This document shows positions 1 to 7,608 of a stretch of DNA of 40,436 bases, piece by piece. The stretch is from IMG/VR virus record IMGVR_UViG_2737471852_000004; one strand, 5' to 3'. This DNA comes from a virus. Taxonomy: Duplodnaviria; Heunggongvirae; Uroviricota; Caudoviricetes. The position numbers and the translations under genes were made by a program. Every line of letters begins with the position of its first letter. The stretch's first letter is position 1. Under the pieces are notes generated by a model. That model ran no database searches and was not told where the DNA came from. It was given only the letters and a program-made list of their open reading frames with translations.

Positions 1-1248
1 ATGGCACTGAATATTCCATTCAGAAATGCGTACTATCGTTTTGCATCCAGTTACTCATTTCTCTTTTTTATTTCCTGGTCGCTGTGGTGGTCGTTATACG
101 CTATTTGGCTGAAAGGACATCTAGGGTTGACAGGGACGGAATTAGGTACACTTTATTCGGTCAACCAGTTTACCAGCATTCTATTTATGATGTTCTACGG
201 CATCGTTCAGGATAAACTCGGTCTGAAGAAACCGCTCATCTGGTGTATGAGTTTCATCCTGGTCTTGACCGGACCGTTTATGATTTACGTTTATGAACCG
301 TTACTGCAAAGCAATTTTTCTGTAGGTCTAATTCTGGGGGCGCTCTTTTTTGGCCTGGGGTATCTGGCGGGATGCGGTTTGCTTGACAGCTTCACCGAAA
401 AAATGGCGCGAAATTTTCATTTCGAATATGGAACAGCGCGCGCCTGGGGATCTTTTGGCTATGCTATTGGCGCGTTCTTTGCCGGCATATTTTTTAGTAT
501 CAGTCCCCATATCAACTTCTGGTTGGTCTCGCTATTTGGCGCTGTATTTATGATGATCAACATGTGTTTTAAAGATAAGGATCACCAGTGCGTAGCGGCG
601 GATGCGGGAGGGGTAAAAAAAGAGGATTTTATCGCAGTTTTCAAGGATCGAAACTTCTGGGTTTTCGTCATATTTATTGTGGGGACGTGGTCTTTCTATA
701 ACATTTTTGATCAACAACTTTTTCCTGTCTTTTATGCAGGTTTATTCGAATCACACGATGTAGGAACGCGCCTGTATGGTTATCTCAACTCATTCCAGGT
801 GGTACTCGAAGCGCTATGCATGGCGATTATTCCTTTCTTTGTGAATCGGGTAGGGCCAAAAAATGCATTACTTATCGGTGTTGTGATTATGGCGTTGCGT
901 ATCCTTTCCTGCGCGCTGTTCGTTAACCCCTGGATTATTTCATTAGTGAAGCTGTTACATGCCATTGAGGTTCCACTTTGTGTCATATCCGTCTTCAAAT
1001 ACAGCGTGGCAAACTTTGATAAGCGCCTGTCGTCGACGATCTTTCTGATTGGTTTTCAAATTGCCAGTTCGCTTGGGATTGTGCTGCTTTCAACGCCGAC
1101 TGGGATACTCTTTGACCACGCAGGCTACCAGACAGTTTTCTTCGCAATTTCGGGTATTGTCTGCCTGATGTTGCTATTTGGCATTTTCTTCCTGAGTAAA
1201 AAACGCGAGCAAATAGTTATGGAAACGCCTGTACCTTCAGCAATATAG
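1..1248 (+). CDS. MFS sugar:H+ symporter, LacY / oligosaccharide:H+ symporter family (host flank)
   Basis: 415-aa hydrophobic ORF; motifs FEYGTARAWGSFGYA, YNIFDQQ, GPKNALL, FKYSVANFD align with E. coli LacY as recalled. Confidence 0.85.
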   Translation: MALNIPFRNAYYRFASSYSFLFFISWSLWWSLYAIWLKGHLGLTGTELGTLYSVNQFTSILFMMFYGIVQDKLGLKKPLIWCMSFILVLTGPFMIYVYEPLLQSNFSVGLILGALFFGLGYLAGCGLLDSFTEKMARNFHFEYGTARAWGSFGYAIGAFFAGIFFSISPHINFWLVSLFGAVFMMINMCFKDKDHQCVAADAGGVKKEDFIAVFKDRNFWVFVIFIVGTWSFYNIFDQQLFPVFYAGLFESHDVGTRLYGYLNSFQVVLEALCMAIIPFFVNRVGPKNALLIGVVIMALRILSCALFVNPWIISLVKLLHAIEVPLCVISVFKYSVANFDKRLSSTIFLIGFQIASSLGIVLLSTPTGILFDHAGYQTVFFAISGIVCLMLLFGIFFLSKKREQIVMETPVPSAI

Positions 1249-1772: not shown

Positions 1773-1973
1773 TTACCCATTGGCGCGGCTTAAGAGCTTA
1801 TTTTTGAATTCACAATGGTCACGATATAACCATCTTGCTCGCCCGTGGATAACTTTGGCTTTAGGCAGGTCTCCGGACTTAATCCGGTCGTAGATGAAGG
1901 TTTTACCGAAGCCAGTATCGGCCATGATGAATTTCAAATCAACCAGTGAATCAGGCTGTAGTTCGTGTTGCAT
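1773..1973 (-). CDS. xis: Excisionase / AlpA-family DNA-binding protein
   Basis: 66 aa; HTH pattern ...MADTGFGKTFIYDRIKSGDLPKAKVIHGRARWLYRDHCEFK matches AlpA/Xis family; RBS GGAG 6 nt upstream of ATG at 1973; terminal gene of leftward operon. Confidence 0.7.
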   Translation of the reverse strand: MQHELQPDSLVDLKFIMADTGFGKTFIYDRIKSGDLPKAKVIHGRARWLYRDHCEFKNKLLSRANG

Positions 1974-4609: not shown

Positions 4610-4903
4610 TCAGTCATTACTGATAGCGCCATAGCGTGAGCGGTAATTACGCAGGCGCGGGTCAATTTCAGGGAAGTGGGTATATGTGGCTTTGCGGAAT
4701 GGTCGGATTGATGTCTGGTAAATTCGCTCGCGTTCTTTTTTCTCTGCAAGCCAGATACAATGGCGAAATTCCTTTTCCTCTTTCGTTTCCTGCGGTAGCG
4801 ACATTATCAGGTCGTAGTTTTTTCTGAATTTATCCAGCACCTCCAATACGGAATTGCCGGAACAGCGGCGCGCGTCGTCCGCACCATACAGAGGCGCTGG
4901 CAT
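4610..4903 (-). CDS. Hypothetical protein (97 aa)
   Basis: ATG at 4903 has AAGGA 7 nt upstream. Confidence 0.5.
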
Positions 4904-4926: not shown

Positions 4927-5310
4927 TTAGAAGGGAATTGAATCGTCGTATTCAGGATGATTTTGATGATTGCTACTTTGTTGCTGTTGGCTGTTTCCTG
5001 AAGTTGCAAATCCAATCTTTGCATTCAGTAATTCAAGAGTGATTGATTGACCATTTTGCCCCTGATAAGCATCAACCCTGATGTTTTCTCCGGTAATTTC
5101 AACAATGCCTCCTTCAACCAGAACGCTACGGTAGTAATCCGCTTGCGCTCCCGGCTTGGCAAATACAACGGCGCTGTAGTTTGTCCATTCTTTCTTTTTT
5201 GTCTGGCGATCGTAATACTGAACGCCAGCACGGATGTTGAATCCGATATTTTCCCCGGCCTGAAACTCTCTTGCGGGCTTGTTTAGTCTTACAGTAATCG
5301 AATGTGCCAT
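4927..5310 (-). CDS. Compact SSB-like protein with acidic C-terminal tip (...PEYDDSIPF)
   Basis: C-terminus matches the bacterial SSB tail D-D-D-I-P-F; OB-fold-like core; ATG overlaps the Erf stop (TAATG). Confidence 0.55.
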   Translation of the reverse strand: MAHSITVRLNKPAREFQAGENIGFNIRAGVQYYDRQTKKKEWTNYSAVVFAKPGAQADYYRSVLVEGGIVEITGENIRVDAYQGQNGQSITLELLNAKIGFATSGNSQQQQSSNHQNHPEYDDSIPF

Positions 5311-5915
5311 TAAGCAGCAGCTCCTTCTAATTCGTCTCGTCTGATGTTGTAAACGTCCTGCGCTTTGTGCTGCTCAGGTGTGCCTTCGAGCATCTTCCAC
5401 GCTTTGGCGAACGCCTGTTTAAGCTCTTCTACGGTGTTTTTCTGCATTGCTGCGTCAGTGAATGCTTTTAGAACCTGTTCAGGTGTAGGTGATGGTTTTG
5501 ATTGCTTTGCTGCTGCGTTCTGCTGATGTTTATGCTCGTCTGTATCTGCATCTTTCGCATCATCTATGCCGAACAAACCATTGAGGCAATACTTGCGCGC
5601 ATAAGAGCTTGTAGCTCCAGTAACTTGTGCAGAATCCATTCCTTTCTTGCTTTCTTCCTCTCGTGCAAGAGCAGTTGCCGTATGACTGTTTTCGCCATCG
5701 GTAATAGTTGCCGTGGCTTTCACGTAATACCGATCACCAATCAACACAACTTCATCGCTGATTGATAAAAACAGGCCATTCAGTAACGGCTTAACGCCTT
5801 CAAGAATGTCTTCGCAGCTTCTGTATTTATATTTACCGAATGAGTTGTACTGATTCTTTGGCGCGTTCAGATTCTCCTGAATAGCTGCCAGTCTTGCGTA
5901 AAATTCTTTGCTCAT
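5310..5915 (-). CDS. erf: Erf-family single-strand annealing recombinase
   Basis: MSKEFYARLAAIQENLNAPKNQYNSFGKYKYRSCEDILEGVKPLL... is near-identical to phage P22 Erf as recalled; start at Met 5915, not the upstream track start. Confidence 0.9.
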   Translation of the reverse strand: MSKEFYARLAAIQENLNAPKNQYNSFGKYKYRSCEDILEGVKPLLNGLFLSISDEVVLIGDRYYVKATATITDGENSHTATALAREEESKKGMDSAQVTGATSSYARKYCLNGLFGIDDAKDADTDEHKHQQNAAAKQSKPSPTPEQVLKAFTDAAMQKNTVEELKQAFAKAWKMLEGTPEQHKAQDVYNIRRDELEGAAA

Positions 5916-5925
5916 ATGATTGTTC

Positions 5926-6096
5926 TCAGAATGGACACGGCCCAAGGAAATAACGCTGATTTAATACTTCGACTCTGGACAAGTTAAGGCATACCCGCAT
6001 TCCTTCGCGGTCACCATTATGGCGATACCAGAGAGCTTTCTGCGTGTACATGCGTCTCTGTAACTTGCTCTCCTTCACTGTGGTTGCAAGTGACAT
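5926..6096 (-). CDS. Small ORF (56 aa) in the position of P22 arf
   Basis: ATG at 6096 has AAGGAG 6 nt upstream; assignment by position only; a competing 52-aa ORF (6017-6175) overlaps in another frame. Confidence 0.3.
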   Translation of the reverse strand: MSLATTVKESKLQRRMYTQKALWYRHNGDREGMRVCLNLSRVEVLNQRYFLGPCPF

Positions 6097-6171
6097 GAAT
6101 ATCTCCTTCGTTACCGATTAATTCTTTCATCTGACGAATGAATTCTTCGTCTGACCAGTTATCTGTAAAAC

Positions 6172-6324
6172 TCATTTCCTGCGATACCACGGAAGGTTGA
6201 TAGCTGATTTCATCGCTTTATTTGCTTCAAGCCACATTTTTGAATCACCAATAAATCTGGCTATTACTGCTTTGTTTTGTGCAGCACGAAGCATCTGGTG
6301 ATTGATGGCTATTTCATTGCGCAT
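6172..6324 (-). CDS. Small ORF (50 aa), possible Kil-like host-division inhibitor
   Basis: ATG at 6324 has GAGGT 6 nt upstream; between cIII-like and erf as kil is in P22; motif ARFIGDSKMW is only tentatively Kil-like. Confidence 0.35.
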   Translation of the reverse strand: MRNEIAINHQMLRAAQNKAVIARFIGDSKMWLEANKAMKSAINLPWYRRK

Positions 6325-6464: not shown

Positions 6465-7433
6465 TTAGTAGATTATTTTTGTTGCGAATACTTCGCCTTT
6501 TACGATGGCTGTTATGATATTTTTAGCAACATCTTCTGATGCGCCAACCTTGATAAGGTCAGCAAGTATTTTGTTATTTACTTCTTTTCGGTGAGCTTTA
6601 TCCTTTGCTCTACGCTCTTCTTCGTCCTTGATTCTTTTTTCTTCTGCTATTCTGGCTTGCTCTTTTGCTTCAGCCTCGCGCCGGATTCGTTCAGCCTCCT
6701 CCTGTGCTTTTCGGCGTTCTGCTTCAATTGCCGCCTGCTTTTCTCTTTCAGCTTGTTCTGCTGCCTCTTTTGCTTCGCGCTGTGCTCGTTGCTCGGCTTC
6801 AATGCGTTCACGCTCTGCACGTTCCGCTGCGGCCTTAGCTTCTGCTTCTCGCCTTGCTGCTGCTTCAATTTCGGCTTTTGCCTTTGCTTCGGCTTCAGCT
6901 CTGGCTTTCTCTTCAGCTTCTCTTTGTAAGCGTTCTTCATGCTCTCGCTTTTCCTTCTCCGCTTTGAGTCTTGCCTCTTCTCTTTGGCGGTCAAATTCGC
7001 GATCCATCAAAATCGCTATTTCATGGTCAGACTCAATTTGCTTTGCGAGAGCTTCAGCTGCTGCCTTAGCTTCTTCTTCGGCTTTAATCCGCGCCTGTTC
7101 TTCCTCATAATCAGTAAGAGGCTGGCGTGCCTTGGCTTTCAGCTCATCAAGGCGATCACGCACTGTCTTGCGGTTGGCATCAATTAGCTTTGGAATTTCC
7201 TTCAGTTCAGCAACAAGGTCTTTGCCAAGACCATCGAGATATGTTTTCGTCTGCGCAACTTTATACGCCAGAGAAGCGATCTCCTTTCTGCCCTTTGCCG
7301 TTGTGATATCAGGCACAAAGGACATAACTTCACGTTCAACCTTTTGGAGAATTTCTTCAATCTGGTCGGCAGACTGAAATACAGTCATTGCATTTGCTTT
7401 TTCAATAACAACTAAATCTGTTACTTCACTCAT
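6465..7433 (-). CDS. Hypothetical coiled-coil protein with about 180-aa E/A/K/R-rich low-complexity repeat
   Basis: Start at Met 7433 with GGAGG RBS (track ORF extends to 7487); N-terminal globular part, long AEAKA/EAERR repeat, short C-terminal domain. Confidence 0.6.
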   Translation of the reverse strand: MSEVTDLVVIEKANAMTVFQSADQIEEILQKVEREVMSFVPDITTAKGRKEIASLAYKVAQTKTYLDGLGKDLVAELKEIPKLIDANRKTVRDRLDELKAKARQPLTDYEEEQARIKAEEEAKAAAEALAKQIESDHEIAILMDREFDRQREEARLKAEKEKREHEERLQREAEEKARAEAEAKAKAEIEAAARREAEAKAAAERAERERIEAEQRAQREAKEAAEQAEREKQAAIEAERRKAQEEAERIRREAEAKEQARIAEEKRIKDEEERRAKDKAHRKEVNNKILADLIKVGASEDVAKNIITAIVKGEVFATKIIY

Positions 7434-7608
7434 ATATCCTCCATCAAAAAAATCGCCCTCACATCGGAGGGCAAAGAAGATTTCCAATAATCAGAACAAG
7501 TCGGCTCCTGTTTAGTTACGAGCGACATTGCTCCGTGTATTCACTCGTTGGAATGAATACACAGTGCAGTGTTTATTCTGTTGTTTATGCTAAAAATAAA
7601 GGCCACCA

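Follow-up and report, generated by a model that had tools for sequence, protein, structure and literature searches.

Does a short phage protein that ends like the SSB of its host act as a genuine single-stranded DNA-binding protein, and if it does, in which process? The question is raised by a 127-aa open reading frame at 4927..5310 on the minus strand (the first-pass annotation gave no strand) of the 40,436-nt stretch of viral DNA analysed here, referred to as the window. The gene starts with ATG, and its coordinates include the stop codon at 4927-4929. The product has the N-terminus MAHSITVRLNK, MAHSITVRLNKPAREF, and the C-terminus NHQNHPEYDDSIPF. A chance or non-coding ORF is ruled out by the deep homologs of the protein and by a whole-gene pN/pS of 0.046 among 60 distinct 384-nt alleles, a value which, like the other pN/pS values given below, indicates a trend only, the allele pairs being non-independent.

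The SSB gene belongs to a cassette of three genes, all on the minus strand. Immediately upstream lies erf (5310..5915; PF04404, E 2.4e-44), which encodes a single-strand annealing protein and is the presumed functional partner, and 23 nt downstream lies abc2 (4610..4903; PF11043, 2.6e-62), the third gene, which encodes an anti-RecBCD protein. The adjacency to Erf, one of the claims of the first-pass annotation, is therefore correct, and the two genes overlap: the TAA stop of erf (5310-5312) and the ATG of the SSB gene (5308-5310) share the letters TAATG at 5308-5312, and the 3' end of erf contains a Shine-Dalgarno-like GAAGGAG (5321-5327), which precedes the ATG by 10 nt. As read from the sequence, this junction (5308..5327, minus strand) suggests that the SSB gene is translationally coupled to erf. 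The cassette has the order (small ORFs)-erf-ssb-abc2 and is located downstream of kil and cIII. Because of the flanking genes, with kil, cIII and the immunity region upstream beyond erf, and ea-type genes and a TorI-like excisionase gene downstream beyond abc2, the SSB gene can be assigned to an early-left operon; the lambdoid prophage that carries it is inserted next to cscB, the sucrose permease gene of the host.

At the left prophage boundary (region 1-1973), host cscB (1-1248, plus strand) is followed by the TorI-like excisionase gene (1773-1973, minus strand). No integrase was found on the left prophage side, and no tRNA anywhere in the window. The same TorI-type excisionase/cscB layout is present in other E. 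coli genomes, and the boundary fits a KplE1-like organisation, with int and xis at opposite ends.

The gene is of a recognised and common type. In tblastn searches against cultured phages, the window protein is 93.7% identical to HK97 gp40 and 99.2% identical to the HK022 homolog over 127/127 residues, and the mEp043 copy is also 99% identical. HK97 gp40 and the HK022 homolog occupy the same slot between erf and abc2, and with no substantive difference they are the same protein as the window SSB. Near-identical copies are present in about 50 phage records, including Sf101, CUS-3, the HK106/446/542/544/633 series, and Stx1a/Stx2a-converting phages. Matches to the 1.5-kb erf-ssb-abc2 cassette are present in 1108 of the 5426 complete E. 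coli genomes (~20%), and in 556 of them (~10%) the match covers at least 80% of its length. The gene is labelled 'hypothetical protein' in RefSeq and in most phage records.

This gene type was already known, since HK97 gp40 had been named 'SSB-1b' in a Genome Research 2025 paper (PMC12315714). In that paper, Casjens/Smith and colleagues, who sort the genes of lambdoid Rec modules by function, count HK97 gp40 among the SSBs on the basis of an AlphaFold 3 fold like that of bacterial SSB and of its location in the recombination module, and they describe little to no sequence similarity to known SSBs. Term searches of its main text found no treatment of the C-terminal tip, of profile-level SSB homology, or of partner swapping. 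Likewise, our literature searches found no biochemical, genetic or other experimental study of the HK97-gp40-type family. What the present analysis adds to the published classification is homology to SSB at the profile level, a conserved and constrained tip, the apparent coupling to the recombinase gene, and at least three recombinase superfamilies as partners.

The family itself is narrow. A family profile search of 1.84 billion representative proteins returned 213 clusters (50% identity) at E <= 1e-3, essentially all of phage or prophage origin, with homologs down to about 30% identity. Among 185,579 species-representative genomes, gp40-type relatives occur in only 16, mostly as Enterobacterales prophages and in a few marine Gammaproteobacteria, and the phage matches are enterobacterial lambdoid phages together with many Vibrio phages. 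Thus gp40-type SSBs form a small closed family, separate from the large family of bacterial SSBs.

Is the protein an SSB by descent and fold? It matches PHROG 44 (single strand DNA binding protein) with E 2e-28 and 100.9 bits over residues 2-127. No Pfam family, PF00436 (SSB) included, matches it at E <= 1, and with TIGR00621 it scores 17.5 bits, below the cut-off of 53.95. The best PDB match in a single-sequence phmmer search is an SSB at a non-significant E of 0.032, and a PDB search with the A1 profile returned nothing significant. Since these sequence-only PDB searches gave nothing significant, profile-profile and structure comparisons were needed. By hhalign, a profile of 70 diverse family members aligns with E. 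coli SSB at 97.1% probability and E 5.4e-11, and with HK75 gp31, a canonical SSB (PF00436, 1.6e-36), at 96.4% and E 1.3e-9. Identity to E. coli SSB is about 15-19%.

Structure prediction agrees with this assignment. The AlphaFold2 model, built from a 43-sequence alignment, has a mean pLDDT of 83, averages >90 across most of residues 1-100, and contains a confident OB barrel at residues 3-103. Its elements are strands 3-8, 14-18, 21-34 and 39-51, a helix at 55-63, and strands 69-74, 76-84, 87-95 and 98-103, and their predicted order (b1-b2-b3-helix-b4-b5) is the OB-fold topology of SSB. In Foldseek, each of the 50 best hits is an SSB or a PriB with a probability of 1.00, with TM-scores of only 0.4-0.55, and in BFVD the family members rank first and annotated phage SSBs next. 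The OB-fold domain is accordingly placed at residues 1-105 (4996..5310, minus strand). The first-pass annotation had proposed an SSB-like protein, to be examined for an OB fold and aligned to phage SSBs, and the PHROG 44, hhalign, AlphaFold2 and Foldseek results all bear this out. Its further remark on a non-canonical N-terminus fits the raw sequence only: in the AlphaFold2 model the first strand begins at residue 3, and in the hhalign alignment residues 4-94 pair with residues 10-102 of the PF00436 SSB HK75 gp31.

The residues expected to contact DNA are also retained. In E. coli SSB, W40, W54, F60 and W88 are the residues that stack on ssDNA. In the alignments, window Y32 pairs with W40, F50 with F60, Y82 with W88, and either W42 or Y45 with W54, the register near W54 differing between the two alignments. 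Among the 70 diverse members, an aromatic residue is present at W42 in 70/70, at Y45 in 70/70, at F50 in 69/70, and at Y82 in 58/70. The strong purifying selection on the OB core and the aromatics kept at the stacking positions point to genuine ssDNA binding, the role of each residue being assigned by analogy with E. coli SSB.

The OB domain is followed by a short linker, rich in Q/N/S and disordered (residues 106-119, 4954..4995, minus strand; pLDDT <50 at 107-127), and by the C-terminal tip E-Y-D-D-S-I-P-F (residues 120-127, 4930..4953, minus strand), which matches the D-F-D-D-D-I-P-F of E. coli SSB. Thus the window protein shares with E. coli SSB the OB fold, the order of strands and helix, the aromatics at W40/W54/F60/W88, the disordered linker, and the acidic IPF tip; it differs in having 24 rather than about 65 residues after the OB domain, in the tip itself (DDSIPF instead of DDDIPF), and in structural scores that are moderate. 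The first-pass description of the protein as much shorter than bacterial SSB is accurate (127 versus 178 aa), and the small size results from the short post-OB tail. Across the family this tail ranges from 20 to 99 residues with a median of 48, and the linker is Q/P/A-rich, variable in length, and poorly conserved.

The tip, on the other hand, is both conserved and constrained. Among the near-full-length matches of the first search (>=120 aa), 82/108 (76%) end in [IVLMAP]-P-[FYW], the usual tips among close homologs being F/Y-D-D-S-I-P-F or W-D-D-x-P-P-F. The same ending is found in 65 of 120 near-full-length diverse representatives (50% identity), and nine more carry the motif no more than 8 residues from the end (~62% in total). 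Representatives without the terminal motif include near-variants (…DDDILF, …DDDIPL), probable frameshifts, and marine proteins with Q/N-rich tails (…NFNQPQR or …APYQG). By segment, pN/pS is 0.043 for the OB part, 0.078 for the linker and, lowest of the three, 0.029 for the last eight codons, where pS is nonetheless 0.175; read as a trend, these values show that the tip is under strong purifying selection. An SSB-type tip carried on a disordered linker, as the first-pass annotation had described it, is thus a property of the family, and neither of the two outcomes which that annotation had set against its own proposal, the absence of an OB fold or a lack of tip conservation among homologs, was found. 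Other representatives carry an additional C-terminal helical motif, for example …QQTAIINAATPF and …DDVKEAIIKANT.

With which partners does such a protein work? Near-identical viral loci have Erf upstream in 80/80 cases and Abc2 downstream in 78/80; the scan of viral contigs with the family alignment recovered near-identical copies only, and one distant single-protein query returned no matches. At more distant loci the upstream gene varies. The immediate upstream neighbour of the SSB gene encodes Erf in Intestinirhabdus, Serratia fonticola and Rahnella, in one Vibrio phage and in two viral contigs of marine origin; it encodes a Rad52/Sak-type protein in Yersinia and marine contigs, and an AAA_24 Sak4-type protein in Leminorella and Serratia sp. 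H1w. Other distant loci have upstream a recombination-type exonuclease (YqaJ, PolB-exo2 or phrog_7838), Sipho_Gp157 that is itself preceded by an exonuclease, a coiled-coil protein of phrog_1376, or, in three cases, a gene of no matched family. An overlap of -1 or -4 nt between the recombinase gene and the SSB gene recurs in the Intestinirhabdus, Serratia, Rahnella, Yersinia and Leminorella loci.

Two viral contigs of marine origin (L118, L119) have a phrog_1376 gene as the immediate upstream neighbour of the SSB gene. The window also encodes such a protein, a 340-aa coiled-coil protein rich in Glu/Ala/Lys/Arg, at 6465-7487 (minus strand), between cIII and the N region. In other records these proteins are annotated as 'TolA-like' or 'coiled-coil domain-containing'.

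The same slot can also be filled by an unrelated gene. In P22, Abc1 instead of an SSB is encoded downstream of erf, in the identical position between erf and abc2 and with the same 1-nt stop/start overlap with erf. Homology between the window SSB and P22 Abc1 is ruled out by an hhalign probability of 0.07%, and P22 abc1 is a non-homologous replacement in the cassette. From the variety of upstream recombinases and exonucleases, together with abc1 in the same slot of P22, it follows that the gp40-type family is a recombination-module SSB exchanged among modules, not an Erf-specific factor. Moreover, since P22 Erf works without a phage SSB, the SSB is accessory. Window Erf is 75% identical to P22 Erf overall. 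Its N-terminal annealing domain is ~92% identical, and the C-terminal ~60 residues (~140-201), the region that would be expected, as in Redbeta, to contact partner proteins, are far more divergent.

SSBs with a WSDEPPF tail have different upstream partners in two Serratia genomes (L096 and L097), Erf in one and a Sak4-type AAA_24 gene in the other. Tips of the PPF type, found repeatedly among Serratia and Rahnella members, look like the NDYPPF end of the HK620 SSB, an unrelated protein; they may represent convergent tuning of the tail. A marine Vibrio-phage-like subclade (L005, L113, L118-L123, L125) is without the acidic IPF tip, has long Q/N-rich tails, and is still located beside Erf or Rad52-type genes. 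Because these tip-less marine relatives still adjoin such genes, the tip is not universally required for the partnership.

The closest functional precedent is the HK620 SSB (HkaK, 'SSB-2'). Like the window SSB, it is encoded beside an annealing gene in a lambdoid early-left operon and ends in a host-like C-terminal hexapeptide. Unlike the window SSB, it has the tail NDYPPF and has been characterised experimentally, and the published description sets its sequence family apart from the gp40 type; in PMC12315714 it is described as not homologous to bacterial SSB. The SSB encoded beside sak4 in HK620 stimulates Sak4 annealing and recombineering. Without its last six residues, whose similarity to the DDDIPF of E. 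coli was noted, Sak4 is not loaded on SSB-coated ssDNA and the stimulation is lost (PMC5928155). It is therefore a functional model of tail-dependent recombinase loading, and some gp40-type members also adjoin Sak4-type AAA_24 genes. For annealing proteins of the RecT type, too, the C-terminal tail of SSB is treated as a determinant of compatibility with the host (PMC13490951). In our literature search, tail binding was reported for Redbeta/RecT and Sak4, and no report was found for Erf.

Taken together, the reading we favour, with a probability of about 60%, is that SSB-1b is an SSB of the recombination module which coats ssDNA and, through its tail, loads the phage annealing protein and host SSB partners. 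The gene is real, the OB fold and the remote homology to SSB are found by several comparisons, the tail is conserved, and the linkage to the cassette is observed; that the protein binds ssDNA, in some oligomeric form, and that its tail loads Erf or partners from the host, is what we infer by analogy with the characterised SSBs. In the proposed mechanism, SSB-1b would be expressed from the early-left (pL) operon in translational coupling with Erf, and its OB domain would coat the ssDNA arising from phage replication and recombination by means of conserved aromatic and basic residues. The short disordered tail would be freed upon ssDNA binding, and the acidic, hydrophobic tip DDSIPF would then act as a docking peptide, bringing Erf onto SSB-coated ssDNA and promoting strand annealing. 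As DDSIPF is nearly identical to the host DDDIPF, the tip would probably also engage host SSB-interacting proteins. Finally, Abc2 of the same cassette would disable RecBCD, and for this reason the three genes could constitute one self-sufficient recombination module.

Nevertheless, a protein of this kind could serve processes other than recombination. Canonical bacterial SSB coats the lagging-strand ssDNA and engages the chi subunit of Pol III and PriA, and SSB-1b might do the same as a replication SSB or an adaptor to the host replisome, with DDSIPF engaging Pol III chi, PriA and the like, and with recombinase loading secondary or absent. The near identity of its tip to the host tip would suit such a role, as would the gene content of the prophage, which encodes a replication initiator and a DnaB-type helicase and depends on the host replisome because it encodes no polymerase. 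The genomic context, however, speaks for recombination: the gene was never found in a replication module and, where the upstream gene is identifiable, it either follows a recombinase or a nuclease of recombination or is part of the early-left region (for three upstream genes there was no family match). Furthermore, according to PMC12315714, 177 of the 246 Enterobacteriales panel phages with Rec-module genes have no SSB gene, so that many lambdoid phages replicate without a phage SSB. A primary role in replication is therefore unlikely, although it is the alternative that deserves the most serious consideration. The host-like tip, here on a very short linker, could also be taken for that of a mimic, with ssDNA binding dispensable, which titrates or redirects ExoI/SbcB, RecQ, RecJ, RecO and UDG from host SSB, and thereby protects phage ssDNA or disturbs host repair. 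The neighbouring abc2 is itself a host-manipulating gene, and competition with SbcB has been suggested for another SSB-like phage protein, which ends in FDDDIPF (bioRxiv 10.64898/2026.04.29.721553). Yet the OB core is constrained as strongly as the tip (pN/pS 0.043 versus 0.029, as a trend), the stacking aromatics, which a decoy would not need, are kept, and tail-less relatives persist in the same genomic context. As the adjacent recombinase, and not host proteins alone, gives the most consistent partner signal, competition with host SSB by a pure tail mimic, which the first-pass annotation had raised, is not favoured and seems to us highly improbable.

The least probable of the readings considered is that the main significance of the protein lies in conflict with bacterial defence, either because abortive-infection systems that sense SSBs (Retron-Eco8, AbpAB, DARNA, DRT10) recognise it or because, as a divergent SSB, it evolved to evade such sensing. 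Several defence systems are indeed activated by phage SSBs, and a sequence highly diverged from bacterial SSB with the fold kept is what evasion pressure might give. By analogy with other phage SSBs, a role of SSB-1b as an abortive-infection trigger, which the first-pass annotation had raised, is plausible, but being sensed is a liability rather than a function, and the defence papers that we found concern other SSBs (T7 gp2.5, T4 gp32, Bas52_0087) and none concerns this family. In the only related experiment that we found, in which a 2026 preprint set P2 OLD against the HK75 recombination genes, the trigger is gp33, which alone is reported to be sufficient for OLD toxicity, and the SSB tested there is canonical (PF00436). 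The HK75 locus of that preprint is ruled out as data on the gp40-type SSB, given that HK75 gp31 is a canonical PF00436 SSB and the HK75 'Erf' is of the Rad52 type. Only HK446 gp31 is a 127-aa gp40-type SSB, and in the searched passages of the OLD preprint no result was found for it on its own.

The window has a counterpart of gp33. A 52-aa ORF at 6017-6175 (minus strand; MSFTDNWSDEEFIRQMKELIGNEGDIHVTCNHSEGEQVTETHVHAESSLVSP) is 92% identical to HK75 gp33 and 88% identical to HK446 gp33, and shares about 80 nt, read in a different frame, with a 56-aa ORF at 5926-6096 (minus strand) which matches phrog_1723 'recombinase' and occupies the HK97 gp42.1 position just upstream of erf. By BLASTP, neither ORF resembles P22 Arf. 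The HK75 gene at 5417-6124 of NC_016160 (L111) carries the annotation 'Erf-like ssDNA annealing protein', but its Pfam match is to Rad52_Rad22 (5.2e-26) and not to ERF, and Erf of the window type is labelled 'Bet' in several phage records. The annotation of annealing proteins is thus inconsistent across public records.

The recombination-module SSB outlined above may be part of a wider scheme, which we consider doubtful and put forward only as speculation. SSB-1b could be a dedicated and portable 'recombination-mediator SSB', whose host-like tip plugs unrelated recombinases (Erf, Rad52/Sak and Sak4) into ssDNA and also captures the host SSB interactome, with tip variants (IPF, PPF and the tail-less marine form) that set partner specificity or help evade SSB-sensing defence. 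If this is true, the tip would be a compact and swappable specificity code for phage recombination modules, and would be useful for portable Erf-type recombineering between hosts.

In summary, the window gene encodes an SSB of the HK97 gp40 type with remote homology to bacterial SSB and a tip under purifying selection, encoded beside Erf. These results do not overturn the current understanding, and their importance is modest. A confident SSB assignment improves the annotation of a gene whose cassette matches ~20% of complete E. coli genomes (~10% over most of its length) and occurs in many phages, model and Stx-converting ones among them. Being compact, encoded beside Erf, and equipped with a tail compatible with the host, this cognate SSB is also a natural candidate to improve Erf-based editing, as in the Sak4 and RecT systems, and the association of one SSB family with three recombinase superfamilies may provide a system for studying SSB-recombinase compatibility.
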